Source: Escherichia coli
GTDB taxonomy: Bacteria; Pseudomonadota; Gammaproteobacteria; Enterobacterales; Enterobacteriaceae
DNA: 64,000 nt
Assembly (NCBI RefSeq): GCF_002854065.1
Contig: NZ_CP024147.1
Strand: one strand, 5' to 3'
A program made the translations under genes and the position numbers. The notes under the pieces were generated by a model. The model saw only the letters and a program-made list of their open reading frames with translations, was not told the DNA's origin and searched no databases. Shown here piece by piece: positions 1-51,813 of the stretch (position 1 is the first letter of the stretch; every line of letters starts with the position of its first letter).

Positions 1-2969
1 TGTATATTGAGGTGAAGGATAATTACGGCAACGGAGTACCCCAGCAGGAGGTAACCCTCAGAGTATCACCAAGTGAAGGCGTGACCCTCAGTAATAACGC
101 TATATATACTACCAACCACGACGGCAATTTTTACGCAAGCTTTACCGCTACAAAAGCCGGGGTTTATCAAGTGACGGCAACCCTCGACAATGGCGATTCG
201 ATGCAACAAACAGTGACCTATGTGCCGAACGTCGCGAATGCTGAAATCACGCTGGCAGCCTCGAAGGATCCGGTGATTGCCGACAATAACGATCTCACGA
301 CACTAACAGCAACAGTCGCTGATACAGAGGGCAATGCGATAGCCAACACTGAGGTAACATTTACTCTGCCGGAAGATGTGAGGACGAACTTCACGCTGAG
401 CGATGGCGGTAAAGCGGTTACTGATGCCAATGGCAAAGCGAAAGTCACGCTGAAAGGTACAAAAGCAGGCGCTCATACTGTTACAGCATCGATAACTGGC
501 GGTAAGAGTGAGCAGTTGGTGGTGAACTTTACTGCGGATACGCTCACTGCGCAGGTTAATCTTAACGTTACCGAGGACAATTTTATCGCTAATAACGTCG
601 GGATGACCAGGCTGCAGGCAACAGTGACTGATGGAAACGGCAACCCGTTAGCCAATGAGGCGGTGACATTCACACTACCGGCAGATGTGAGCGCAAGCTT
701 TACTCTCGGACAAGGCGGTTCCGCCATTACTGACATCAACGGCAAGGCTGAAGTTACACTGAGCGGTACAAAATCCGGCACCTATCCCGTGACAGTTAGC
801 GTGAACAGTTACGGTGTCAGTGATACGAAGCCGGTGACTTTGATTGCCGATGCTGGTACCGCTAAACTGGCTGGTTTTACCGCATCATCGGGCTCATTTA
901 CCGCGAGCACAACCGAGGGCGCGACCCTGACGGCAAGCGTCACAGACGCTTACGGCAACCCGCTAGAAGGCATCATGGTCAATTTCCGCGGCCCCGCCAC
1001 CACGCTGAGTAACACCAGTGTCGAAACGGATGCTCAGGGTAAGGCAGAAATCCTTGTGACAAGCACCATTGCTGGAACGAAAGTAGTTACAGCTAATTTG
1101 GCAATCGCACCTACCGAAGCCGCCATTCGAATTTTAACTGTCAACGCAGATGTTGATTCTGCGACGATCACCAGTCTGGAAATGCCTGAAGGTCAGGTAA
1201 TAATCAGAGAACCCATAGCGGTTAAAGCACACGTCGACGACCAGTTTGGCAATCCAGTTGCTGACCAACTTGTGACATTCAGTGCAGAGCCGTCAAGTTT
1301 TAACATGGTCATTAGTCAGAATACGGTTTCTACGAATAGCCAGGGTATAGCTGAGGTCACCATGACGCCCGAAAGATACGGTTCGTATACTGTGAAAGCA
1401 TCCCTGGCGAATGGCTCCTCTTATGAGAAGGACCTGGTGGTAATCGATCTAAGACTAACACTCACGGCATCAAGTCAACTTATCGGCGTCAATGACCCAT
1501 CGGGAGCAACTCTGACTGTAAGGTTAACTCATGCAAACGGGGCTCCATTGAGCCATGAACTCGTTACCTTTAGCGTAACGCCCGAAGGTGCAACGTTAAG
1601 TAGCCAAACAGCGACAACCAACACTTCAGGTGAGGCACAAGTCGTTCTGACCAGCAATAAAGTCGGTACATATGCGGTGACAGCATCGATCCATAGCGGC
1701 GTAATTATTCAGACACAGACAACCGTGAAGGTTACTGGCAACCCAAGCACCGCACATGTTGCTAGTTTTATCGCTGATCCGTCGACTATCACGGCCAACA
1801 ATAGTGATATCAGCACGCTAAAGGCTACTGTTGAGGATGGCAGTGGTAACCTGGTCGAAGGGGTCAATGTAAACTTCGTCTTAAAAAGCGGCTCTGCCAC
1901 ATTGACGTCATTAACAGCGGTGACCGATCAAAACGGACTCGCGACAACGAGCGTTAGAGGAGCTATGACGGGGAGCGTCGCGGTAAGCGCAGAAACGAGC
2001 TATGGTGGAGCGCAAACAGTAGATATAACGCTGGTGGCAGGCCCGGCAGACGCTTCGCTGTCCGTCCTTAAGAACAACCGGTCATCACTGAAGGGGGACT
2101 TTACCGAAAGTGCTGAACTACATCTTGTTCTGCACGATCTATCAGGCCATCCGATCAATGTTTCTGAAGGGATGGAATTTGTGCAATCAGGTACCAACGT
2201 GCCCTATGTGCAAGTTAGTGCAATTGACTACAGCAAAAATTTCTCCGGCGAGTACAAAGCCACTGTTACAGGCGGCGGAGAGGGTATCGCAACGCTGATC
2301 CCCGTGTTGAATGGTGTTCACCAGGCAGGTCTGAATACCACGATAGAATTCATTAGCGCGGAAGCCAGACCAATGACCGGTACAGTGTCAGTCAATGGTG
2401 CGACCCTACCGGCAGCTTCATTCCCTTCGCAGGGATTTACCGGGGCGTATTATCAGTTGAATAATGACAACTTTGCACCAGGAAAAACGGCGGCTGATTA
2501 TGCGTTTTCAAGCACTGCCTCCTGGGTTGATGTTGATACTTCCGGTAAGGTGACATTCAAAAATGTCGGAGATAGAAATGCTGTAATAATCACGGCGACC
2601 CCAAGATCAGGTGGCGCTATTTACCAAACGCAAGTACGGGTGAAGGGCTGGTGGGTGAATCACGGTAATAACCTCATGCAATTAAGCCAGGCTGAAAACT
2701 ACTGCAGCAACCAGGTCGGTAATGGCTACAACCTTCCCCGCGCGGACCTTTTAAGCAATGGACACATGCGGCGCGAAATAGGGTCACTGTATGGTGAATG
2801 GGGAGATATGGGAAATTACATGAACGAAGCTGATTTTTATTCAATGGTATATTGGTCATCTAATTCTGCAGGCGCAGGCCAACAATACATTGTCTCCCTG
2901 GAAACAGGGACGCAAAACACTTATCAAACGCATGAATTTTTTTATGGGGCGTGTTATAAACAGATTTAA
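1..2969 (+). CDS. yeeJ: Large Ig-like (Big_1 repeat) adhesin, C-terminal ~985 aa; gene begins upstream of window
   Basis: Open frame runs from window start; tandem ~100-aa Ig-like repeats (motifs like VTATLDNG, TDANGKAKVTL); synteny with shiA/amn. The M at 12 is internal, not the start. Confidence 0.8.
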   Translation, partial: YIEVKDNYGNGVPQQEVTLRVSPSEGVTLSNNAIYTTNHDGNFYASFTATKAGVYQVTATLDNGDSMQQTVTYVPNVANAEITLAASKDPVIADNNDLTTLTATVADTEGNAIANTEVTFTLPEDVRTNFTLSDGGKAVTDANGKAKVTLKGTKAGAHTVTASITGGKSEQLVVNFTADTLTAQVNLNVTEDNFIANNVGMTRLQATVTDGNGNPLANEAVTFTLPADVSASFTLGQGGSAITDINGKAEVTLSGTKSGTYPVTVSVNSYGVSDTKPVTLIADAGTAKLAGFTASSGSFTASTTEGATLTASVTDAYGNPLEGIMVNFRGPATTLSNTSVETDAQGKAEILVTSTIAGTKVVTANLAIAPTEAAIRILTVNADVDSATITSLEMPEGQVIIREPIAVKAHVDDQFGNPVADQLVTFSAEPSSFNMVISQNTVSTNSQGIAEVTMTPERYGSYTVKASLANGSSYEKDLVVIDLRLTLTASSQLIGVNDPSGATLTVRLTHANGAPLSHELVTFSVTPEGATLSSQTATTNTSGEAQVVLTSNKVGTYAVTASIHSGVIIQTQTTVKVTGNPSTAHVASFIADPSTITANNSDISTLKATVEDGSGNLVEGVNVNFVLKSGSATLTSLTAVTDQNGLATTSVRGAMTGSVAVSAETSYGGAQTVDITLVAGPADASLSVLKNNRSSLKGDFTESAELHLVLHDLSGHPINVSEGMEFVQSGTNVPYVQVSAIDYSKNFSGEYKATVTGGGEGIATLIPVLNGVHQAGLNTTIEFISAEARPMTGTVSVNGATLPAASFPSQGFTGAYYQLNNDNFAPGKTAADYAFSSTASWVDVDTSGKVTFKNVGDRNAVIITATPRSGGAIYQTQVRVKGWWVNHGNNLMQLSQAENYCSNQVGNGYNLPRADLLSNGHMRREIGSLYGEWGDMGNYMNEADFYSMVYWSSNSAGAGQQYIVSLETGTQNTYQTHEFFYGACYKQI

Positions 2970-2989
2970 TTTTTCGTTATAATTTCTTA

Positions 2990-3023
2990 AAGAGTGCTCC
3001 ATTCGGGGCACTCTTTTTTACAT
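2990..3023 (+). terminator. Rho-independent terminator after yeeJ
   Basis: Inverted repeat agagtgctcc...ggggcactct followed by a T-run, just after the yeeJ stop codon. Confidence 0.55.
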
Positions 3024-3230
3024 TCCCTCTATAGAGCTTGCTCTTCTCTCACCGAAAATGAATAAATAAAAATGCGATACCGCCAGATTCGCGTTCGGTG
3101 TGACTATGATCGTATCCGGTGAGTACAGCTTTGATCCAAAGGCTGGTTTTCTGTGATGATTGACCAGCCTCAGAGTATTGATGACACCACCGTTCATAAC
3201 AGATCGGCATTACTATGCATAAGTACTGTC

Positions 3231-4283
3231 TCATATTCTCGCCAAAACACTTTTTAATGCCTTTGCGAATTCATCCAGACTTATATTGTCAATTTTTTGC
3301 CCAACGACGACTGACTCCGAAACATCGGCCATTGCGGGCCATCGCGTTTTGTAATCAGCATAAATTGCAACAACGGGGGTATTATAGGCACTTGCCATAT
3401 GTAATATTGAGGTGTCAGGAGTTATTGCGATATAAGCATCTTTTATGATTGCTGCTGAACGTTTAATCGAGGGTGATAAGGATAAACGGTAGACATTATT
3501 ATAACAATCCACTAATACCCTGGCTTTATCTTCCCCTTTTGGTCCATGAACGATCACTATTGGTATATCTGTTTCACTTTGAATTTTTTCTATTAGATTT
3601 TCTGCAATCGATAGTGAAAATGTACGATCCTGCGAGCTACCTTCTAAATTAAGCGCAATGTAAGATCCTAACGATCGCATTTCCTCGCGCACCTCATCGA
3701 GTACATCCTCACTTAGTGGCAATTCATATATTGGCCTGACTGCTGGAAAACCCGCCTCACGCATCATAAATGCCCATGTCATGGGTACGGGAGCCCGGAG
3801 ATTCTGATCCATCCGGGACGCGTTCTTACACACAGGGGAATAGCACTTCATGGTTAAACCAACAACCTGAAAATTCGTTTTTGCTTTCAACTGACTGATA
3901 AATAACATCGTTTTCAGGTTCTTTTTACGCATCGCCTCTATACAAAGATCCGGAGTACCGTATTGCTGTGTTATGTTCTTCGCTAAATCTTTTATTTCTT
4001 TTAATGTTGCGTGATCCTGCATAGTCATTGTGACTAATGTTAATTTAGTCTGTTCAAGTTTGAGCGCATTAAAGACTTCTAAATTAATTATCGACGTAAC
4101 AATTAGTAGATGCTTAATTTTATGCAATTCAAGCGCCCGAATAACAGGAAAGATGGCCATAGCATCGCCAATCTGATCGGGAATATGGATGACAACAAAG
4201 TCTGTTTTTTCAATATTGAAATTATAAGCTTTATAATCGTAGTAACTAAATGCAATACGTCTCAACAATGATACTAAAAACAT
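3231..4283 (-). CDS. yeeL: Glycosyltransferase family 9 (heptosyltransferase-like), apparently intact
   Basis: 371-aa ORF; start placed at internal ATG (4283) with GAGG-type RBS upstream; GT9-like C-terminal region; position between yeeJ and shiA. Confidence 0.65.
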   Translation of the reverse strand: MFLVSLLRRIAFSYYDYKAYNFNIEKTDFVVIHIPDQIGDAMAIFPVIRALELHKIKHLLIVTSIINLEVFNALKLEQTKLTLVTMTMQDHATLKEIKDLAKNITQQYGTPDLCIEAMRKKNLKTMLFISQLKAKTNFQVVGLTMKCYSPVCKNASRMDQNLRAPVPMTWAFMMREAGFPAVRPIYELPLSEDVLDEVREEMRSLGSYIALNLEGSSQDRTFSLSIAENLIEKIQSETDIPIVIVHGPKGEDKARVLVDCYNNVYRLSLSPSIKRSAAIIKDAYIAITPDTSILHMASAYNTPVVAIYADYKTRWPAMADVSESVVVGQKIDNISLDEFAKALKSVLARI

Positions 4284-8575: not shown

Positions 8576-8649
8576 ATATAATCCTTATAAAAAATATAAT
8601 GTTTAACTCGTCATATTGCTTATAAAAAATCCCCGGTAATGACTCCAAC

Positions 8650-9153
8650 TTATTGATAGTGTTTTATGTTCAGATAATGCCCGATGACTTTGTCATGCAG
8701 CTCCACCGATTTTGAGAACGACAGCGACTTCCGTCCCAGCCGTGCCAGGTGCTGCCTCAGATTCAGGTTATGCCGCTCAATTCGCTGCGTATATCGCTTG
8801 CTGATTACGTGCAGCTTTCCCTTCAGGCGGGATTCATACAGCGGCCAGCCATCCGTCATCCATATCACCACGTCAAAGGGTGACAGCAGGCTCATAAGAC
8901 GCCCCAGCGTCGCCATAGTGCGTTCACCGAATACGTGCGCAACAACCGTCTTCCGGAGCCTGTCATACGCGTAAAACAGCCAGCGCTGGCGCGATTTAGC
9001 CCCGACGTATCCCCACTGTTCGTCCATTTCCGCGCAGACGATGACGTCACTGCCCGGCTGTATGCGCGAGGTTACCGACTGCGGCCTGAGTTTTTTAAAT
9101 GGCGGAAAATCGTGTTGAGGCCAACGCCCATAATGCGGGCGGTTGCCCGGCAT
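8650..9153 (-). CDS. insB: IS1 transposase InsB
   Basis: 167-aa [19 protein letters not shown]... Confidence 0.9.
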
Positions 9154-9347
9154 CCAACGCCATTCATGGCCATATCAATGATTTTCTGGTGCGTACCGGG
9201 TTGAGAAGCGGTGTAAGTGAACTGCAGTTGCCATGTTTTACGGCAGTGAGAGCAGAGATAGCGCTGATGTCCGGCAGTGCTTTTGCCGTTACGCACCACC
9301 CCGTCAGTAGCTGAACAGGAGGGACAGCTGATAGAAACAGAAGCCAC
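9072..9347 (-). CDS. insA: IS1 InsA
   Basis: 91-aa [21 protein letters not shown]...; A6C frameshift motif before insB. Confidence 0.9.
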
Positions 9348-9660
9348 TGGAGCACCTCAAAAACACCATCATACACTAAATCAGTAAGTTGGCAGCATCA
9401 CCAAAATCCCCGTTCTCAGAGAAATAATATTTATTAAAATGGCAGGTCTTCTTTTTCTGATTACCGAAGACAAAGTGGCAATTACGTATAGTTTCCCGAT
9501 AAAGACACGACAGCAACATCCCGCATAAGGCATTGTTCTCTTTATCTTTGTACGGTACTTCATGGAACAGAGATTTTGACCTTGCGAATCGTGATGTCTG
9601 TTGGGGGCAATTTGCTCACTGAAGCGTGAGACTCGATTAAACGCACGAAACACAGAAATC

Positions 9661-9757: not shown

Positions 9758-9833
9758 TGGCTCCTCTGACTGGACTCGAACCAGTGACATACGGATTAAC
9801 AGTCCGCCGTTCTACCGACTGAACTACAGAGGA
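9758..9833 (-). tRNA. asnW: tRNA-Asn (GUU)
   Basis: Reverse complement of TCCTCTGTAGTTCAGTCGGTAGAACGGCGGACTGTTAATCCG...GGAGCCA; anticodon loop CUGUUAA; name by synteny. Confidence 0.9.
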
Positions 9834-11581: not shown

Positions 11582-11657
11582 TCCTCTGTAGTTCAGTCGG
11601 TAGAACGGCGGACTGTTAATCCGTATGTCACTGGTTCGAGTCCAGTCAGAGGAGCCA
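11582..11657 (+). tRNA. asnU: tRNA-Asn (GUU)
   Basis: 76-nt sequence identical to the other two tRNA-Asn copies, ends CCA. Confidence 0.9.
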
Positions 11658-13990: not shown

Positions 13991-14066
13991 TCCTCTGTAG
14001 TTCAGTCGGTAGAACGGCGGACTGTTAATCCGTATGTCACTGGTTCGAGTCCAGTCAGAGGAGCCA
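13991..14066 (+). tRNA. asnV: tRNA-Asn (GUU)
   Basis: Third identical 76-nt tRNA-Asn copy; followed by hairpin terminator 14070-14100. Confidence 0.9.
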
Positions 14067-18520: not shown

Positions 18521-19715
<1,195 letters not shown>

Positions 19716-31375: not shown

Positions 31376-31534
31376 TATGATTTGTTATAAGCTACTCTGT
31401 TTCAGACGCTTCTTTCGAAGCGCCAGAGAACATTTACCTTTAAGGAGAGGTATAAATGGAAATGTTTTTGCCGTTAATACTGGGTTTGTTGCTAGCCGTT
31501 TTCATAGGACGGTGGGCTTGGTAATGACTCCAAC

Positions 31535-32038
31535 TTATTGATAGTGTTTTATGTTCAGATAATGCCCGATGACTTTGTCATGCAGCTCCACCGATTTTGA
31601 GAACGACAGCGACTTCCGTCCCAGCCGTGCCAGGTGCTGCCTCAGATTCAGGTTATGCCGCTCAATTCGCTGCGTATATCGCTTGCTGATTACGTGCAGC
31701 TTTCCCTTCAGGCGGGATTCATACAGCGGCCAGCCATCCGTCATCCATATCACCACGTCAAAGGGTGACAGCAGGCTCATAAGACGCCCCAGCGTCGCCA
31801 TAGTGCGTTCACCGAATACGTGCGCAACAACCGTCTTCCGGAGCCTGTCATACGCATAAAACAGCCAGCGCTGGCGCGATTTAGCCCCGACATAGCCCCA
31901 CTGTTCGTCCATTTCCGCGCAGACGATGACGTCACTGCCCGGCTGTATGCGCGAGGTTACCGACTGCGGCCTGAGTTTTTTAAGTGACGTAAAATCGTGT
32001 TGAGGCCAACGCCCATAATGCGGGCAGTTGCCCGGCAT
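31535..32038 (-). CDS. insB: IS1 transposase InsB
   Basis: 167-aa ORF. Confidence 0.9.
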
Positions 32039-32232
32039 CCAACGCCATTCATGGCCATATCAATGATTTTCTGGTGCGTACCGGGTTGAGAAGCGGTGTA
32101 AGTGAACTGCAGTTGCCATGTTTTACGGCAGTGAGAGCAGAGATAGCGCTGATGTCCGGCGGTGCTTTTGCCGTTACGCACCACCCCGTCAGTAGCTGAA
32201 CAGGAGGGACAGCTGATAGAAACAGAAGCCAC
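31957..32232 (-). CDS. insA: IS1 InsA
   Basis: 91-aa ORF. Confidence 0.9.
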
Positions 32233-32327
32233 TGGAGCACCTCAAAAACACCATCATACACTAAATCAGTAAGTTGGCAGCATCACCCGTCAGATGAAAG
32301 AATTAATCGGTAACGAAGGAGATATTC

Positions 32328-35766: not shown

Positions 35767-35958
35767 ATGTCTTGTCCAAAATGCGGTTCTGGAAATATTG
35801 CAAAAGAAAAAACAATGCGTGGATGGTCTGATGATTATGTGTGCTGCGATTGCGGATACAACGACTCTAAAGACGCATTTGGAGAGCGTGGTAAAAACGA
35901 GTTTGTCAAAATTAATAAAGAACGCGAAGGCGGTGATGCTGCCAACTTACTGATTTAG
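35767..35958 (+). pseudogene. Phage zinc-ribbon protein with C-terminus altered by IS1 insertion (native end ...EREGNEKS reconstructed across the IS)
   Basis: CxxC...CxxC motif (MSCPKCGSG...YVCCDCGY); GGAGGT RBS 6 nt upstream of ATG 35767; reading frame runs into the IS1 terminal repeat. Confidence 0.55.
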
Positions 35959-35986
35959 TGTATGATGGTGTTTTTGAGGTGCTCCA

Positions 35987-36262
35987 GTGGCTTCTGTTTC
36001 TATCAGCTGTCCCTCCTGTTCAGCTACTGACGGGGTGGTGCGTAACGGCAAAAGCACTGCCGGACATCAGCGCTATCTCTGCTCTCACTGCCGTAAAACA
36101 TGGCAACTGCAGTTCACTTACACCGCTTCTCAACCCGGTACGCACCAGAAAATCATTGATATGGCCATGAATGGCGTTGGATGCCGGGCAACCGCCCGCA
36201 TTATGGGCGTTGGCCTCAACACGATTTTCCGCCATTTAAAAAACTCAGGCCGCAGTCGGTAA
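35987..36262 (+). CDS. insA: IS1 InsA
   Basis: 91-aa ORF. Confidence 0.9.
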
Positions 36263-36684
36263 CCTCGCGCATACAGCCGGGCAGTGACGTCATCGTCTGC
36301 GCGGAAATGGACGAACAGTGGGGATACGTCGGGGCTAAATCGCGCCAGCGCTGGCTGTTTTACGCGTATGACAGGCTCCGGAAGACGGTTGTTGCGCACG
36401 TATTCGGTGAACGCACTATGGCGACGCTGGGGCGTCTTATGAGCCTGCTGTCACCCTTTGACGTGGTGATATGGATGACGGATGGCTGGCCGCTGTATGA
36501 ATCCCGCCTGAAGGGAAAGCTGCACGTAATCAGCAAGCGATATACGCAGCGAATTGAGCGGCATAACCTGAATCTGAGGCAGCACTTGGCACGGCTGGGA
36601 CGGAAGTCGCTGTCGTTCTCAAAATCGGTGGAGCTGCATGACAAAGTCATCGGGCATTATCTGAACATAAAACACTATCAATAA
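36181..36684 (+). CDS. insB: IS1 transposase InsB
   Basis: 167-aa ORF. Confidence 0.9.
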
Positions 36685-36823
36685 GTTGGAGTCATTACCC
36701 GCGAAGGCAACGAAAAAAGCTAATTTATTTATTCATATATGAAAACAATGTAATAAATATTCGAATTGAAGAATTGAAAGAACACCAAGCCGCCTGATGG
36801 CGGTTTTTTATTGGAGACAAGAA

Positions 36824-37245: not shown

Positions 37246-37437
37246 ATGACCGATACCAGCCTGATTCCTGAGAAAGAAGTGATGAACAAGCTCGGTGTTT
37301 CATCACGTCAGACAATCTGGAACTATACCAAACGGCACGGATTTCCGAAGCCAGTCAGAACCCACCCCAAATCATACCTTCGTGAAGCTGTTGAAGGGTG
37401 GATTCTTAACGGTGGCGTTAATCAGAAATGCTCCTGA
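37246..37437 (+). CDS. alpA: AlpA-family phage transcriptional regulator / excisionase-like
   Basis: 63-aa ORF with HTH (VSSRQTIWNYTKRHGFPKP), convergent with and adjacent to integrase. Confidence 0.7.
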   Translation: MTDTSLIPEKEVMNKLGVSSRQTIWNYTKRHGFPKPVRTHPKSYLREAVEGWILNGGVNQKCS

Positions 37438-38596
37438 TGTGCCAGAACAATTTATCAGCGTGAAGCTCATACGCTTTGCGCTGAGCCTCTATCCAGTCGT
37501 GTTTATTGTATACGGACATTATCCCGCCAAGTTCATGACCGAGCATTCGCTCAGTAACATGAGGCTCGACATTCATCTCGGACAGACGTGTAACAAGCGT
37601 TCTTCTGAAATCGTGTGTTCGCCAGTAACCTAGATCCATCCCTCCCCTTATTCTATTTACGAATCGGTTGGCTGCAGCGATGCTGATCGGTTTGTTTATG
37701 TCTTCTCCAGGGAAAAGAACATCATTGTACGTTGTCATGGCCTTTTCGAGGAAAGGCTTAATTTGTTCGAAGATTGGACGGCGGATAACATTACCCATCT
37801 TGCTATGCTCTTTCGGTACGGTCCATACGTTTTCCAGCAGGTCAAATTCTGTCTTTTTTGCCAGCCTAAGCTCTGAGAGCCTCGCCCCCCACAGCATAAG
37901 CATCTGATGAAGTAGCTTATTTGACGTAGACGCACGGCTTCTTTCAATAGCAAGCCAAATCTTAGCCAGTTCGTGATACGACAGTACCCGATCCCCTACC
38001 TCAGCGCGGGAGCCGAAGTCCCTTGGTTGGATGCTCATAATTGCGCAACTATCTATCAACTGACGCCGCATGCACCAACTTATTGCTGATCTTAGTTGAC
38101 TTAGCACCTGCCTTGCTCGGCGTGGATTATCTCTTTCTTCTTCGGTAAGCAGGTCAACCCATTGCTTAACCGTGATAGAAGATGCCGGACGATTAGGAAA
38201 GGCGTCATGCATGCGCTTCATAACCGTTGATCGGTAAAGTGCCTGGGTCTTTTCTCTGAGAGTTGTAGAGACGTAGTTGTCGAACCAGTAGTCGAGACAC
38301 TGGGCGACCGTCATGGAGTTCTCCACCTTCTCTTCAAAATAAGTGCGTGGATCCGTTCCTGAGAAATAGAGCTTTCGCAAGTCAGCAGTGATCTGTCTGG
38401 CATCCTTCAAAGACAGGGATGGGTATCGACCAAGCCCAAGTCGATTAGGCTTGCCATGCCAGCGATAGCGGTACTGGAACTGGATGACCCCCTTCGGTGA
38501 AATTCGTACGCTGAGGCCATCGGCATCAGCCACTTCTTGTGGGCCCGAATATGGTTTACCATAAATACTACGCAGTTTTGTGTCGCTTATAGCCAT
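37418..38596 (-). CDS. int: Tyrosine-type phage integrase (P4-type, N-terminal arm-binding domain)
   Basis: 392-aa ORF with integrase catalytic region (HDFRRT...LGH...Y); adjacent to attR. Confidence 0.85.
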   Translation of the reverse strand: MAISDTKLRSIYGKPYSGPQEVADADGLSVRISPKGVIQFQYRYRWHGKPNRLGLGRYPSLSLKDARQITADLRKLYFSGTDPRTYFEEKVENSMTVAQCLDYWFDNYVSTTLREKTQALYRSTVMKRMHDAFPNRPASSITVKQWVDLLTEEERDNPRRARQVLSQLRSAISWCMRRQLIDSCAIMSIQPRDFGSRAEVGDRVLSYHELAKIWLAIERSRASTSNKLLHQMLMLWGARLSELRLAKKTEFDLLENVWTVPKEHSKMGNVIRRPIFEQIKPFLEKAMTTYNDVLFPGEDINKPISIAAANRFVNRIRGGMDLGYWRTHDFRRTLVTRLSEMNVEPHVTERMLGHELGGIMSVYNKHDWIEAQRKAYELHADKLFWHIRSISD

Positions 38597-38777: not shown

Positions 38778-40202
38778 ATGACAGACGCAGATAAACAACC
38801 TACCTTCCTCTTTCACGATTACGAAACCTTTGGCACGCACCCCGCGTTAGATCGCCCTGCACAGTTCGCAGCCATTCGCACCGATAGCGAATTCAATGTC
38901 ATCGGAGAACCCGAAGTCTTTTACTGCAAGCCCGCTGATGACTATTTACCCCAGCCAGGAGCAGTATTAATTACCGGTATTACCCCGCAGGAAGCACGGG
39001 CGAAAGGAGAAAACGAAGCCGCGTTTGCCGCCCGTATTCACTTGCTTTTTACCGTACCGAAGACCTGTATTCTGGGCTACAACAATGTGCGTTTCGACGA
39101 CGAAGTCACACGCAACATTTTTTATCGTAATTTCTACGATCCTTACGCCTGGAGCTGGCAAAACCGCAATTCGCGCTGGGATCTGCTTGACGTGATGCGC
39201 GCCTGCTATGCCCTGCGCCCGGACGGCATCAACTGGCCGGAAAACGACGACGGTCTGCCGAGCTTCCGCCTGGAACATCTCACCAAGGCCAACGGTATTG
39301 AACACAGTAACGCCCATGATGCGATGGCCGACGTTTACGCGACCATCGCCATGGCGAAGCTGGTGAAGGCCCAACAGCCAAAGCTGTTTGATTATCTGTA
39401 TGCCTACCGGGGCAAAAACAAGCTGATGACGCTGATTGACGTCCCGCAGATGAAGCCACTGGTGCATGTCTCGGGAATGTTTGGCGCCTGGCGCGGAAAC
39501 ACCAGCTGGATTGCGCCGCTGGCCTGGCATCCGGATAACCGTAATGCGGTGATCATGGTCGACCTGGCGGGCGACATCGCCCCGCTGCTCGAGCTGGATG
39601 CCGATACGCTGCGCGAGCGCCTGTATACGCCGAAGGCCGAGCTCGGCGACAGTTCGCCGGTGCCGATTAAGCTGGTGCATCTGAATAAGTGCCCGGTGCT
39701 GGCGCAGGCCAATACCCTGCGCCCAGAAGACGCTGACCGTTTAGGCATTAACCGACAGCACTGCCTGGATAACCTGAAACTGCTGCGCGATAACCCGCAG
39801 GTGCGCGAGAAGGTGGTGGCGATTTTTGCTGAAGCCGAGCCGTTTGTCGCATCGGACAACGTCGACGCCCAGCTTTATAACGGTTTCTTTAGCGACGCCG
39901 ACCGCGCGGCGATGAAAATCGTGCTGGAGACCGAGCCGCGCAATCTGCCGGCGCTGGACATTACCTTCGCCGACCCGCGTATTGAGAAGCTGCTGTTTAA
40001 CTTCCGCGCGCGCAACTTCCCCGGCACGCTGGATGAAAACGAGCAACAGCGCTGGCTGGAACACCGTCGGCAGATCTTCACCCCGGAATTTTTACAGGCC
40101 TACGCCCAGCAACTGGAGATGTTGTACGGTCAGTATGAGGGGAATAACGAGAAGCTATCGCTGCTGAAGGCGCTGTATCAGTACGTGCAGGAGATTGTTT
40201 AA
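38778..40202 (+). CDS. sbcB: Exodeoxyribonuclease I, with phage-supplied promoter and first ~11 codons (MTDADKQPTFLF...)
   Basis: 474-aa ORF with DnaQ-like exonuclease N-terminus (FLFHDYETFG); hairpin terminator 40211-40241 downstream. Confidence 0.9.
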   Translation: MTDADKQPTFLFHDYETFGTHPALDRPAQFAAIRTDSEFNVIGEPEVFYCKPADDYLPQPGAVLITGITPQEARAKGENEAAFAARIHLLFTVPKTCILGYNNVRFDDEVTRNIFYRNFYDPYAWSWQNRNSRWDLLDVMRACYALRPDGINWPENDDGLPSFRLEHLTKANGIEHSNAHDAMADVYATIAMAKLVKAQQPKLFDYLYAYRGKNKLMTLIDVPQMKPLVHVSGMFGAWRGNTSWIAPLAWHPDNRNAVIMVDLAGDIAPLLELDADTLRERLYTPKAELGDSSPVPIKLVHLNKCPVLAQANTLRPEDADRLGINRQHCLDNLKLLRDNPQVREKVVAIFAEAEPFVASDNVDAQLYNGFFSDADRAAMKIVLETEPRNLPALDITFADPRIEKLLFNFRARNFPGTLDENEQQRWLEHRRQIFTPEFLQAYAQQLEMLYGQYEGNNEKLSLLKALYQYVQEIV

Positions 40203-40255
40203 TTCAACGCAGCGACGCCGGAAAATCTTCCCGGCGTCGCTTGATGCCTGGGGCA

Positions 40256-40480
40256 TTATTTCTGTACGGTGATGGTCCACGCCGCATCGCCAGACTGCTG
40301 ATAGTCCGTGACCGTAAAGCCCTCTTCCGCCGCCCACTGCGGGATGGCTTCCGTCGCCTGAGTACAGTCGAACTCAATCACCAGCTGGTCGCCGCTGGCC
40401 AGTTCCGCCATCGCCGCCTTCGCTTCAATTAACGGGAACGGGCAAACCTGCGTGACTACGTCCAGTTTCTTCACAACCAT
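40256..40480 (-). CDS. yeeD: TusA-like sulfurtransferase
   Basis: 74-aa ORF with CPxP motif (VCPFPLIEAK). Confidence 0.85.
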   Translation of the reverse strand: MVVKKLDVVTQVCPFPLIEAKAAMAELASGDQLVIEFDCTQATEAIPQWAAEEGFTVTDYQQSGDAAWTITVQK

Positions 40481-40525
40481 TTTTTCTACTCCTTAAGCCG
40501 TTGCGGTTTTCAGTTTTGCTTTCCG

Positions 40526-41494
40526 CTACGGGCGAACATACAACATCCACGACGCGCACCACACGCCGAGAATCATAAATACCAGGCCAATCCAGCCCTG
40601 CCAGGTCATCATCGCCGTCATCACCAAACCGTTGCCGATCGAGCAGCCGCCGGCAATGCTGGCACCGAAGCCCATCAGTACGCCGCCACCCGCGCTACGC
40701 AGCGTGGTGCTGGCATCGGCAGCGCGGACGCGGAATTCACGGCTGGCTTTCGCGGCAATAAACGAACCGATAAAGATTCCCAGCACCAGGAAGACGCCCC
40801 AGTTGAGGTACTTGCTGTCACCCCCCACCAGGAACTGCAGGATATTGGCGGTCGGCGAGGTAATGCCAAGGCCAAACATACGTCCGGTGGCCTCACTCAG
40901 CGGCCAGGCCAGCAGGGCGATAAGGCCAATCAGCACGGCGGTCACAAACGGATGCCAACGCTTTTCAAACAGCAGATGCGCCAGGCCAGTGCGGCGCGGC
41001 GGCAGAGAAGCTACTTTGAGCTTTGGTTTGCTCAGCTCTTTGCGAACAAACCACAGGGTCACCGCCACCAGCAGAACGATAAGTGGCCAGACGGAGATAT
41101 TCAGGGTTTCGGCAATGCCGTTGTGAGTGGTCGTGTGTTGACCGAGGAATTTGTTAAGCCCAGCCGCGTGCGGTGAACGCATGATCGCGCTCATCACCAT
41201 ATAGGTGACCAGTGCAATCCAGCTGCCAATCAGCCCTTCCCCGGCACGATACCAGGTGCCGGTGGCGCAGCCTCCCGCATAAACGATACCGATACCAAAA
41301 ACAAATCCACCCACCACGGTGCCAAGCCACGGGAACGCGCCTGCATCGTACTGCACCAGGCCAAGCTGGATCAGGGCGAACACGCCGATACTCTGGATAC
41401 AGATAGCAATCAACAGTGCGTAAAACATGCGGTTATTTTTGGTGATATACATATCGCGAAAGCCACCCGTCAGGCAGAAACGACCGCGCTGCAT
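40526..41494 (-). pseudogene. yeeE: YeeE/YedE-family transporter, 5' end severed by IS1 (first ~14 codons lie beyond the IS at ~42283-42330)
   Basis: 322-aa membrane ORF abutting the IS1 end; minus-strand sequence after the IS encodes MIISGMICGAL..., completing the native N-terminus across the 9-bp duplication. Confidence 0.75.
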
Positions 41495-41560
41495 AACGAA
41501 TCCCAGGTGATGCTGCCAACTTACTGATTTAGTGTATGATGGTGTTTTTGAGGTGCTCCA

Positions 41561-41836
41561 GTGGCTTCTGTTTCTATCAGCTGTCCCTCCTGTTCAGCTA
41601 CTGACGGGGTGGTGCGTAACGGCAAAAGCACCGCCGGACATCAGCGCTATCTCTGCTCTCACTGCCGTAAAACATGGCAACTGCAGTTCACTTACACCGC
41701 TTCTCAACCCGGTACGCACCAGAAAATCATTGATATGGCCATGAATGGCGTTGGATGCCGGGCAACTGCCCGCATTATGGGCGTTGGCCTCAACACGATT
41801 TTACGTCACTTAAAAAACTCAGGCCGCAGTCGGTAA
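41561..41836 (+). CDS. insA: IS1 InsA
   Basis: 91-aa ORF. Confidence 0.9.
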
Positions 41837-42258
41837 CCTCGCGCATACAGCCGGGCAGTGACGTCATCGTCTGCGCGGAAATGGACGAACAGTGGGGCTA
41901 TGTCGGGGCTAAATCGCGCCAGCGCTGGCTGTTTTACGCGTATGACAGTCTCCGGAAGACGGTTGTTGCGCACGTATTCGGTGAACGCACTATGGCGACG
42001 CTGGGGCGTCTTATGAGCCTGCTGTCACCCTTTGACGTGGTGATATGGATGACGGATGGCTGGCCGCTGTATGAATCCCGCCTGAAGGGAAAGCTGCACG
42101 TAATCAGCAAGCGATATACGCAGCGAATTGAGCGGCATAACCTGAATCTGAGGCAGCACCTGGCACGGCTGGGACGGAAGTCGCTGTCGTTCTCAAAATC
42201 GGTGGAGCTGCATGACAAAGTCATCGGGCATTATCTGAACATAAAACACTATCAATAA
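41755..42258 (+). CDS. insB: IS1 transposase InsB
   Basis: 167-aa ORF (FTSLKK variant). Confidence 0.9.
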
Positions 42259-42460
42259 GTTGGAGTCATTACCCGAATCCCAGTAAAGCCCCGCAAATCA
42301 TGCCACTTATTATCATGTGCAACATAAGAATCAATTAACTCAATATTATCAGTCTTAAAATTATTCCTGACCCCGCCGGACGGCTCCAATAACCAAAAGC
42401 TCTATATTATTCCCGACGGTTATTAATATTGATTTTTTAATCACCCCACAAACTTAAGAC

Positions 42461-42490
42461 AAAAAAAACCGGAGGCCCAGACCTCCGGTT
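42461..42490 (-). terminator. Terminator downstream of plaP
   Basis: Hairpin ccggaggcccagacctccgg with A-run on plus strand (T-run on minus). Confidence 0.6.
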
Positions 42491-42515
42491 TTGCAACCAT
42501 CGTTTTTAAATTCAG

Positions 42516-43874
42516 TTATGCAACATCTTCGTACTGCGGAACCGGGTTGCGGAAGCTTTTGGTCACACAGGCCAGGTAGATCAGACCGATACCGGCCCAG
42601 ATCAGGCCCAGAACCATAGAGCTCTCTTCCAGGTTCACCCACAGTGCGCCAACGGTCAGCGCGCCGCAGATTGGCAGGAACAGGTACTGGAAGTGATCTT
42701 TCAGCGTCTTATTACGCTTCTCACGGATCCAGAACTGAGAGATAACGGACAGGTTCACGAAGGTGAACGCCACCAGCGCACCGAAGTTAATCAGCGCCGT
42801 TGCCATCACCAGGTCGAAGTTAATCGCCAGCAGCGCAATCGCGCCAACCAGGATGATGTTCATCGCCGGGGTGCGCCAGGTTGGATGCACGTAGCCGAAG
42901 AAGCTTTTCGGGAACACGCCATCACGGCCCATCACGTACATCAGACGCGCCACACCCGCATGCGCCGCCATACCGGAAGCCAGCACGGTAATGGTGGAGA
43001 AGATCAGCGCGCCAACCTGGAAGGCTTTACCCGCCACGTACAGCATGATTTCAGGCTGTGAGGCGTCCGGATCTTTGAAGCGAGAGATATCCGGGAAGTA
43101 GAGCTGCAGGAAATAGGTGGAGAAGATAAAGATCAGGCCACCAATCAGCGCCGTCAGGAAGATAGCACGCGGAATCACACGCTCAGCGTCTTTGGTTTCT
43201 TCAGACAGGTTGCTGATACCGTCAAAACCGGTAAAGGAGAAGCACAGAATCGTGGCCCCGGTAATCATAGGGATCACGTGCGCATCACCCGACCAGAACG
43301 GACGGTTGCTTGCCAGCGTACCGGCACCTTCGCCGTGCGCCACGCCATAAATCACCATACCTAGGATCACGGCAATCAGTACCACCTGGAACACCACGAT
43401 CACGGTGTTAAAGTTGGCGACAGATTTGATGCTGCGCAGGTTAAAGGCGGTCATAAAGGCAACCAGTGCAATCACGAATACCCATGACGGTATCGACGGC
43501 ACCAGCGCTTCGAAATAGATTTTTGCCAGCAGAATGTTGATCATCGGCGCGAACAGATAATCGAGCAGCGAAGACCAACCCACCATAAAGCCAACGGTCG
43601 GGCTGATGGATTTCTGGGCATAAGTGTAGGCAGAGCCCGCCGAAGGATAACGGCGCACCAGCTTACCGTAGCTCAGCGCGGTGAACAGAATTGCCACCAG
43701 AGCGAAGGCATAAGCTGTTGGCACGTGACCATCGGTCATGCCAGATACGATACCGAACGTATCAAACAGCGTCATCGGCTGCATATAGGCCAGGCCCATC
43801 ATAACAACCGGAATAAGCGTAAGCGTTTTACGTAATTCCACGCGAGAGGTGTTTGGAGTAACGTTATGCGACAC
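42516..43874 (-). CDS. plaP: Amino acid/polyamine permease (putrescine importer PlaP)
   Basis: 452-aa 12-TM APC-family ORF; synteny. Confidence 0.85.
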
Positions 43875-44221
43875 GGTCAGTCTCCATTACGGCGATGGCC
43901 GGCGCAAAATTGAAAAATTGCCCCATTTTTTTTCTGTTTCCTCAGCGACAACGACTGTCGTTTTTTAAGTAAGTATCTATCCGGTACGAAGCCCGGCCTC
44001 TTTAATTTGATGGTTGTTTTGATGTAAAAAAAATAACCGACGCGGCAAGCACGTCGGTTAATCTCAATTTTTTACATTCGACATATTTTGCCCCAAACGG
44101 TAGCAAAAAGACAAGCCGCTGAGAGCATAATCAGCACGCCTTCTCGTCTAAACGACTGATAATTCAGCAACTCCCGAATCATAAATCTCATCAATAGCAC
44201 TATTTGCTAAAACAGCGGCGA

Positions 44222-45043
44222 TTATTCCATCGGCATACGTAACGGGTCAGGATACTGATACTCAAAGCCGAGCTCGCGGCAAATGAGATTACCGTCGATG
44301 ATTTTGCCTTTTCCATTACCGCTGTCGCTAAAGCTCGGAACCGCTAACCCCAGCTCACGCGCCATTTGCGGATAGAAAATACCGCGAGCGGGATGCAACG
44401 GCGCACAAATGTTATAAATGTGTCCACCCTTCGGCGCCTGTAATAAAAGCGTAATAGCAGAGACAACATCTTCCAGATGGACGAGATTCACGCCGTGCTG
44501 ACCATCCGGCGCGGATTTACCTGCGAAGAAACGTCCCGGATGCCGATCCGGCCCCACCAGCCCCGCCAGACGCAGAATATCCACCGACGTCCCCGGCAAT
44601 TGATGAAGCCAGTCTTCCAGCTCTTTTAATACTCTGCCGCTAGCGGTAACCGGTTCACGCGGCGTGCTCTCTTTTACCAGCCCTTCTTCTTTACCGTAGA
44701 CCGAAGTGGAGCTGGTAAAGATAATGCGCGGAATCTGGTACGCCAGCGCGGTGTCCACAATCTCCTGCACCGCCTGATGATAGAAATCTTCGCCCGGACC
44801 GCTGCGGCGCGCGGGGAGCGTAATGACCAGCGCGTCAACATTCATTAAAGCATCAAGGTCATCAGCCTCACAGACCAGCTGCGGATCGAGCCGCAACGGA
44901 TAGCTATCAATCCCGCACATCCGTGCGGCTTCCACGCCATCCTCTGTCGTTTTACTGCCCGTTACCTGCCAGCCGCGCGCCATCAACGACAGCGCCAGCG
45001 GCATACCCAGCCACCCTAAACCGACAATTGCCACCTTCTTCAT
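44222..45043 (-). CDS. yeeZ: NAD-dependent epimerase/dehydratase family protein
   Basis: Start at internal ATG (MKKVAIVGLGWLG Rossmann motif) with AGGAGA RBS; 274 aa. Confidence 0.8.
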   Translation of the reverse strand: MKKVAIVGLGWLGMPLALSLMARGWQVTGSKTTEDGVEAARMCGIDSYPLRLDPQLVCEADDLDALMNVDALVITLPARRSGPGEDFYHQAVQEIVDTALAYQIPRIIFTSSTSVYGKEEGLVKESTPREPVTASGRVLKELEDWLHQLPGTSVDILRLAGLVGPDRHPGRFFAGKSAPDGQHGVNLVHLEDVVSAITLLLQAPKGGHIYNICAPLHPARGIFYPQMARELGLAVPSFSDSGNGKGKIIDGNLICRELGFEYQYPDPLRMPME

Positions 45044-45149
45044 TGCGCTATCTCCTGGTTCATCCTGCACTCCTCTCATAAGGCTACGCCACAGCGAGAA
45101 AACTGACAATTTATAGTGGTAACATGAATTGATTTAATGAATGAAAAAA

Positions 45150-45190
45150 GCGCTTGCGCTCAACGACAAAAGTGGTTTAGGTTAAAAGAC
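45150..45190 (+). promoter_or_regulatory. his operon promoter region (approximate)
   Basis: Location upstream of hisL; TAGGTTAAAAG -10-like element as remembered for the enterobacterial his promoter. Confidence 0.4.
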
Positions 45191-45221
45191 ATCAAGTGAA
45201 TAGTCATTCAACGAGAAATTT

Positions 45222-45272
45222 ATGAGCCGCGTTCAATTTAAACACCACCATCATCACCATCATCCTGACTAG
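45222..45272 (+). CDS. hisL: his operon leader peptide (7 consecutive His codons)
   Basis: atg agc cgc gtt caa ttt aaa cac cac cat cat cac cat cat cct gac tag = [16 protein letters not shown]. Confidence 0.95.
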
Positions 45273-45369
45273 TCTTTCAGGCGATGTGTGCTGGGAGACA
45301 TTCAGATCTTCCAGTGGTGCATGAACGCAAGAGAGCCCCCGGAAGATCATCTTCCGGGGGCTTTTTTTT
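45273..45369 (+). promoter_or_regulatory. his attenuator with terminator hairpin 45335-45369
   Basis: Perfect 13-bp stem gcccccggaagat/atcttccgggggc followed by T8, between hisL and hisG. Confidence 0.9.
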
Positions 45370-45403
45370 GAACCAAATTCAGCAGGGTAATGAGGAATAC
45401 AGA

Positions 45404-46303
45404 ATGTTAGATAACAGCCGTTTACGCATAGCTATTCAGAAATCAGGCCGCCTGAGCGATGATTCACGCGAATTACTGGCCCGTTGTGGTATCAAAATCA
45501 ATCTCCACACCCAGCGCCTGATCGCGATGGCGGAGAACATGCCGATCGATATCCTGCGCGTTCGCGATGACGATATTCCGGGGTTGATTATGGATGGCGT
45601 GGTCGATCTCGGCATTATCGGTGAAAACGTTCTGGAAGAAGAGCTGCTGAGCCGCCGCGCGCAAGGCGAAGACCCGCGCTACTTTACCCTGCGTCGTCTG
45701 GACTTCGGCGGCTGCCGTCTGTCGCTGGCGACCCCGGCGGATGAAGCCTGGAACGGCCCGGCTGCGCTCGACGGCAAACGTATTGCCACCTCTTACCCAC
45801 ACCTGCTCAAACGTTATCTCGACCAGAAAGGCATCAGCTTTAAATCCTGCCTGCTGAACGGCTCTGTTGAAGTGGCCCCGCGTGCCGGTCTGGCCGACGC
45901 CATCTGCGACCTGGTATCAACCGGCGCGACGCTGGAAGCCAACGGCCTGCGTGAAGTAGAAGTGATGTTCCGCTCTAAAGCCTGCCTGATTCAACGCGAC
46001 GGCGAGATGAGCGACACCAAGCAGCAGTTGATTGACCGTCTGTTAACCCGTATTCAGGGCGTGATTCAGGCGCGCGAATCGAAATACATCATGATGCACG
46101 CGCCAACCGAACGCCTGGAAGAAGTGATTGCCCTGCTGCCGGGTGCCGAGCGCCCAACCATTCTGCCGCTGGCGGGCGACCAGCAGCGCGTGGCGATGCA
46201 CATGGTCAGCAGCGAAACCCTGTTCTGGGAAACCATGGAAAAACTGAAGTCCCTGGGTGCCAGCTCGATTCTGGTACTGCCGATTGAGAAGATGATGGAG
46301 TAA
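45404..46303 (+). CDS. hisG: ATP phosphoribosyltransferase
   Basis: Start at ATG 45404 ([17 protein letters not shown]...), 299 aa. Confidence 0.9.
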
Positions 46304-46308
46304 GCGCC

Positions 46309-51813
<5,505 letters not shown>

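Follow-up and report, generated by a model that had tools for sequence, protein, structure and literature searches.

The 64-kb window (the whole stretch of Escherichia coli DNA that was analysed) runs through yeeJ, shiA, amn, yeeN, the asn tRNA genes, cbl, nac, cobUST, tmaR-dacD, prophage remnants, sbcB, tsuBA, plaP, the his operon, ugd and gnd, and ends in an O52-type wzm/wzt O-antigen cluster. The gene that is hit, yeeE (now called tsuA), lies on the minus strand, where a copy of IS1, the fourth in the window, has inserted after codon 17. Along the plus strand, the features between the end of tsuB and the end of plaP are:

40256-40480, minus strand: tsuB (yeeD), 74 aa, intact, with the CPxP cysteine present; downstream of tsuA in the same operon (NF041048)
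40493-40525, minus strand: the former last 10 sense codons of tsuA (RKAKLKTATA) and the original TAA, now untranslated
40526-40528, minus strand: nonsense codon TAG, which is CAG (Gln341) in relatives (plus-strand A at 40528, not G)
40526-41494, minus strand: tsuA body, a 322-codon ORF from Met19 (MQRGRFCL) to the premature TAG
41497-41505: left copy of the target-site duplication (TSD), CGAATCCCA, abutting the IS1 end
41506-42273, plus strand: IS1 copy 4, complete, 768 bp
41506-41528: IRL of IS1 copy 4, GGTGATGCTGCCAACTTACTGAT
41513-41540, plus strand: predicted IS1 promoter-like site (promoter scan)
41561-41836, plus strand: insA, ORF intact
41755-42258, plus strand: insB' frame, ORF intact
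41812-41818, plus strand: A6C -1 frameshift motif (AAAAAAC)
42251-42273: IRR of IS1 copy 4, GGTAATGACTCCAACTTATTGAT
42274-42282: right copy of the TSD, CGAATCCCA, abutting the IS1 end
42275-42325, minus strand: detached 5' fragment of tsuA, codons 1-17 (MLHMIISGMICGALLGF), from translation
42326-42464, minus strand: native upstream region of tsuA, presumed to hold its promoter, between the plaP terminator-like hairpin and the tsuA start
42465-42492, minus strand: plaP terminator-like hairpin (terminator scan)

A search for both ends of the element found four full 768-bp copies of IS1 in the window (8635-9402 and 31520-32287 on the minus strand; 35932-36699 and 41506-42273 on the plus strand), and the left-end sequence likewise occurs four times. 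Copy 4 reads GGTGATGCTGCC... from 41506 at its left end and ...GTCATTACC up to 42273 at its right end, and its terminal inverted repeats are imperfect, IRL and IRR being identical at 18 of 23 bases. A size of about 768 bp, imperfect inverted repeats, insA and insB' with an A6C frameshift, and a TSD of 8-9 bp are the hallmarks of the IS1 family (PMC12428005). All of them are found in copy 4, together with Pfam matches to Zn_ribbon_InsA, HTH_Tnp_IS1 and DDE_Tnp_IS1 (PF03811, PF12759, PF03400) and a sequence that has one mismatch in 768 positions to IS1A of K-12.

The original prediction had described a perfect 9-bp duplication around this copy, which is borne out. The 9-mer CGAATCCCA occurs exactly twice in the 64-kb window, each time abutting an end of copy 4, and the chance of such a match at exactly those two positions is about 4e-6. 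Alignment to intact yeeE, which had been proposed as a check, showed that the relatives carry an uninterrupted gene with a single TGGGATTCG at the site and that the IS1 ends in the window flank that 9-mer.

Removal of IS1 and of one copy of the 9-mer restores a single open frame, MLHMIISGMICGALLGFVMQRGRFCL... (minus strand), which is the 351-aa tsuA of close relatives. In these, RefSeq names the gene tsuA (thiosulfate utilization transporter TsuA/YeeE) and has tsuB/yeeD next after it. On NCBIfam NF041049 (curated cut-off, 645 bits), the reconstructed protein reaches 689.6 bits over profile positions 1-348, which upholds the earlier identification of the gene as yeeE, and the expected TsuB/YeeD partner lies immediately downstream. 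The 322-codon ORF of the window, by comparison, scores 643.3 bits, just under the cut-off, and covers positions 18-339 of 348. As in E. coli K-12 yeeE-yeeD and in S. thermophila YeeE and YeeE-YeeD (6LEO, 8J4C, 8K1R), the reconstructed window protein is a full-length TsuA with three cysteines and a TusA-like TsuB next to it. These cysteines, C25, C94 and C302, are invariant in a 55-sequence alignment and are kept in the window ORF; in StYeeE, C22, C91 and C293 are the three conserved cysteines that line the pathway (PMC11073785).

The number of codons cut off depends on which start is used. The figure of about 14 given in the original prediction holds when the count begins at the second methionine (MIIS), whereas from the RefSeq-annotated start (MLHM) it is 17. 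A natural start at MQRGRFCL, with the upstream fragment as unrelated sequence, is ruled out by conservation, by the family profile, by a crystal structure and by a structural model. Residues 1-18 are coding and conserved across 80 species that range from Kluyvera to Paenibacillus and Bacillus relatives; in these, the frame opens as M..M(I/L)..G..CGALLGFVMQRGRFC, in many of them with stops just upstream. In the 55-sequence alignment, M1, G8, G12, L14, L15, G16, F17 and V18 are invariant. The NF041049 profile has 17 positions ahead of Met19, the crystallised S. thermophila YeeE (6LEO) begins at the equivalent of Met4, and in an AlphaFold model (mean pLDDT 78.7, pTM 0.81), residues 2-21 form the first helix. 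The gene is truly split after codon 17, and the residues cut off, 1-17, are in the model almost all of transmembrane helix 1. Where a functional gene would have a continuous conserved frame from start to stop with its own upstream region, this one is broken by IS1 after codon 17 and by a TAG at codon 341, and the upstream region now lies 777 bp away from the gene body.

Start calls for tsuA disagree on identical uninterrupted DNA (MQRG in relatives L001 and L007-L009, MLHM in L002-L006), giving products of 351, 340, 333 and 322 aa. Some gene callers pick the MQRG start even where there is no IS1, which gives L001 a product of 333 aa and L007-L009 one of 322 aa. Since gene callers disagree in this way, exact-sequence look-ups of TsuA are unreliable.

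The length of 322 codons given for the body in the original prediction is right for the ORF, but without an extra TAG at 40526-40528, which had been missed there, the remainder would have 334 codons. The normal tsuA stop lies at 40493-40495, 12 nt ahead of tsuB; the window ORF ends 33 nt earlier, and the TAG removes the last 11 residues, QRKAKLKTATA. Six relatives have CAG at this position, the TAG being the only difference in 121 aligned bases and also the sole mismatch in the 1,306 bases over tsuB and the tsuA body (99.9% identity to relatives). The TAG occurs without IS1 in at least the relatives L007-L009, L012-L014, L098 and L099, one IS1-free TAG contig having been recorded in 14 samples. 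The stop is therefore older than the IS1 insertion. The block around it, at about 38.9-45.2 kb, shows 100% identity between lineages whose flanks diverge (L008, L099).

The insertion itself is recent, since near-identical strains carry the uninterrupted gene with one 9-mer. In relatives L002-L006, an identical SbcB lies next door and the uninterrupted 351-aa gene is found at the corresponding place. L007 (SRR23696841) has no IS1 at the site, although its flanks match the window at 100% across 4,807 bases on one side and at 99.97% across 9,998 bases on the other. The same IS1-tsuA junction was found in none of 5,426 complete RefSeq E. coli genomes, the only match with at least 80% coverage being a different insertion, in strain D53-1. 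It was found in two further assemblies, L010 (GCA_035821435.1) and L011 (a metagenome assembly), whose contigs end inside IS1 with exactly the same junction. The insertion is a real and recent event restricted to a small lineage, and it provides a very recent marker separating otherwise near-identical O52-type strains.

It is hardly conceivable that the IS1 in tsuA is an assembly artefact in which a repeat copy has been misplaced. The window does hold four IS1 copies, and assemblers can be confused by repeats; however, a perfect 9-bp duplication lies exactly at both IS1 ends, the same IRL-tsuA junction terminates contigs in two independent assemblies, and copy 4 has a sequence of its own, 2 to 9 bases off the other three copies in the window, and is therefore not a mis-assembled repeat. 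Granted a real insertion, the remainder from Met19 to Pro340 (322 residues) might still be made, by read-through or from a promoter that the IS1 end contains or has created, and might work with TsuB as a thiosulfate channel. The frame is open across the junction, the three cysteines and the YeeD-contacting arginine are retained, an outward TTGGCA hexamer is present in IRL, and remainders of this kind pass as intact tsuA with some gene callers, among them PGAP in the case of D53-1. Nevertheless, a working remainder is very improbable. Both insA and the IS1 promoter are on the plus strand, pointing away from the tsuA body and toward the detached N-terminal fragment. The body frame stays open for 35 codons into the left end of IS1, with no ATG, GTG or TTG before Met19, and Met19 is not preceded by a good Shine-Dalgarno sequence. 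Under strict settings, a scan of 40200-42560 for promoters and terminators gave a single promoter-like site, IS1's own, which is on the wrong strand for the tsuA body, and an Rfam scan of 40.2-42.5 kb found no RNA family. When the minus strand was scanned leniently for a hybrid outward promoter, only TTGGCA (in IRL) paired with CGTTAT or TATGCA was found. These candidate -10 sequences match at 3 of 6 positions and both overlap the ATG of Met19, and the pairing was rejected as a useful promoter; because of the overlap, a transcript from the TTGGCA site would begin at or after the ATG and could not encode the 322-aa ORF. Moreover, the product would be without nearly all of helix 1, which is partly invariant across phyla, and its score falls short of the family cut-off. 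Read-out from IS1, which the original prediction had allowed as a means of expression, is not supported, given the direction of the IS1 promoter, the lack of an in-frame start in the IS1 end and the position of the outward match over the ATG. From the native start, translation gives MLHMIISGMICGALLGFG, an 18-aa peptide, followed by TAA TGA in IRR (TAA at 42269-42271). Expression of tsuB, or of a shorter product beginning at Met19 or Met33, could still come from an unrecognised internal promoter.

The reading that accounts best for these observations, at a probability of roughly 0.88, is that tsuA of the tsuA-tsuB thiosulfate-uptake operon is a pseudogene through two successive lesions, the TAG and then IS1. 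In the first step, a CAG-to-TAG change at codon 341 would have removed the basic C-terminal tail of 11 residues, giving an allele that circulates free of IS1 in several E. coli lineages. In the second, very recent step, an intact IS1 of the IS1A type would have transposed in after codon 17, duplicating 9 bp. The remainder of the gene is now cut off from its upstream region, its start codon and residues 1-17. Precise excision of IS1 would restore only the older TAG-truncated allele.

Whether the gene was already dead from the Q341 stop when IS1 fell into it is a separate matter, which adds to the two-lesion reading and does not exclude it. The TAG in the IS1-free relatives named above is consistent with an earlier death, as is the basic tail after the invariant Arg339-Pro340, kept by nearly all of the 80 orthologues. 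This tail, however, is variable in both sequence and length and falls outside the StYeeE region alignable to the crystal structure; the TAG allele has undergone no further decay, being 100% identical across lineages with diverged flanks and one base off the intact alleles. Such a pattern would fit a tolerated truncation and, equally, a very young allele, and a gene dead before IS1 arrived is a tentative possibility, on the unlikely side. A related matter is why IS1 should have landed at the 5' end of tsuA. Strain D53-1 (L016, NZ_CM161506.1) carries an independent IS1 at 2618-3385, with the TSD CACAAATT, 17 nt further 5' and in the same orientation, and its 334-aa remainder is what PGAP annotates as intact tsuA. 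In CAVP819 (L101, NZ_CM176344.1), an IS1 at about 3063-3830, again in the orientation seen in the window, interrupts a typical tsuA allele; this junction is common to 50 complete genomes, in which PGAP marks tsuA as a pseudogene. The first 35 or so codons of tsuA would then be a recurrent landing site for IS1, hit independently three times or more within about 100 bp of the start, always in one orientation and in two very different alleles, owing either to a structural hot spot or to selection in some niche against uptake by TsuA; the many lineages without tsuAB (22% of genomes) would fit the selective version. Such a non-random origin is doubtful, however, given that three events among more than 5,400 IS1-rich genomes (median of about 10 IS1 matches each) are not clearly above expectation, that the 50 genomes are probably one clade and hence one event, that three events would all share an orientation by chance with a probability of 0.25, and that no phenotype favouring the loss is known.

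In tsuB, the DNA is identical to that of relatives, and the product scores 160.5 bits on NF041048 (cut-off, 147.5) and has a Pfam TusA match. Polarity is a classical property of IS1 insertions; most transcripts that run into the 768 bp of untranslated, antisense IS1 would therefore be terminated there, and little mRNA would be expected to reach the tsuA body or the intact tsuB. Most likely, tsuA is dead and tsuB, on this general behaviour of IS1, is stranded by polarity. Both YeeE and YeeD are required for thiosulfate uptake by this route (PMC11073785), and the TsuA/TsuB pathway is therefore most likely off. This agrees with the original prediction, which had called the yeeD-yeeE pair probably inactive; the split of tsuA by an IS1 with a true TSD, also described there, is upheld. 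The cell would then take up sulfate and thiosulfate via CysPUWA, whose genes would lie elsewhere in the genome, outside the window, and the strain's thiosulfate uptake probably depends on it.

Loss of the pathway would be near-neutral. This neighbourhood is present in 5,424 complete E. coli genomes. In 4,203 of them, tsuAB lies between sbcB and plaP; in about 1,220 (~22%), sbcB is directly beside plaP and there is neither tsuA nor tsuB. The phenotype of the YeeE route appears only in a cysPUWA deletion background (PMC11073785). These genomes, the IS1 hits elsewhere and the dependence of the phenotype on the cysPUWA deletion suggest that loss of tsuA is common and probably near-neutral. By analogy, the genomes lacking tsuAB would have arrived at the same outcome as the window, with no TsuA/TsuB pathway; in those, however, the genes are gone, whereas in the window, both are physically present and the loss is recent.

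The closest parallels are the IS1-disrupted tsuA genes of CAVP819, with 49 further complete genomes, and of D53-1, in which the same gene is hit within its first 35 or so codons by an element of the same family (IS1A/IS1B type) with an antiparallel transposase, and in which tsuB is intact downstream, as in the window. Their insertion points differ from that of the window and represent independent events; in the junction of the CAVP819 type, unlike that of the window, the N-terminus and the greater part of the upstream region have been lost as well. Moreover, CAVP819 and D53-1 have the typical E. coli allele, while the window has a Kluyvera-like allele with the extra nonsense codon; the window tsuA, interrupted and truncated, is about 75-78% identical to the typical allele in DNA and about 84% in protein. 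A further parallel is with the classical polar IS1 mutations in the gal and lac operons, since here too IS1 interrupts the first of two genes in an operon, near its start, and silencing downstream would be expected. The feature is an ordinary, recent IS1 pseudogenisation of a dispensable gene, an event of a kind already known. In annotation, tsuA of this genome should be given as a pseudogene (IS1 plus a nonsense codon) and not as an intact 322-aa protein.

The origin of the whole locus, which had been missed in the original prediction, is of more interest. The sequence changes inside sbcB, at about 39.1-39.2 kb; from there until at least 46.3 kb, the window is 67-90% identical to ordinary E. 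coli and 95-100% identical to Kluyvera genomosp. 3 YDC799 (CP022114.1), whereas the DNA to the left of about 39.1 kb is E. coli-like, tmaR through dacD being 98% identical to ordinary E. coli. The Kluyvera-like block (about 39150-46330, and probably further to the right) covers part of sbcB, tsuB, tsuA, plaP, an SDR/yeeZ-like gene, hisL and hisG; yeeY and yoeB-yefM are absent from this arrangement. Judged from these identities, the block from sbcB to hisG is an interspecies import beside the O-antigen locus. Klebsiella, a donor that analogy with the O8/O9 antigens would suggest for the divergent block, was rejected, as the scan across species indicated Kluyvera. The Kluyvera-like tsuA allele is present in only 5 of the 5,426 complete E. 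coli genomes, at least 4 of which have the O52-type O-antigen region of the window, and the window is 100% identical to E. coli CUWW06 from 42284 to 64000. In L008, which belongs to another lineage, the identical block, including the TAG, spans only about 38.9-45.2 kb. When the literature was searched for O52 in combination with Kluyvera, no description of the import was found. The block is a clean example of interspecies replacement, more interesting than the IS1 insertion and still a known kind of event.

Several minor observations concern the remainder of the window. Rfam matches place STnc240, an enterobacterial sRNA, at 44025-44101 (minus strand), just upstream of plaP, and the His leader at 45248-45369 (plus strand). 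Three tRNA-Asn genes, at 9758-9833 (minus), 11582-11657 (plus) and 13991-14066 (plus), are in the usual asnW/U/V arrangement, and IS1 copy 1 (8635-9402) is inserted between yeeN and the first of them. Between cobU and tmaR, a 326-aa ORF (18667-19647, minus strand) matches in length and position the IS5-type (DDE_Tnp_1) transposase called beside cobU in L002. IS1 copy 2 (31520-32287) has no TSD and lies between Mu-like tail, baseplate and DNA-circularisation genes (25.4-31.4 kb) and lambdoid early genes (Rad52-like, SSB, DUF551), which run up to an integrase (37418-38596) next to sbcB; two prophage remnants were likely fused at copy 2 through a deletion or rearrangement mediated by IS1. Finally, the TSDs of copy 1 (AAAATCCCC) and copy 4 have AATCCC in register, which that of copy 3 (CGCGAAGGC) does not, and the shared hexamer may be due to chance or to a target preference.
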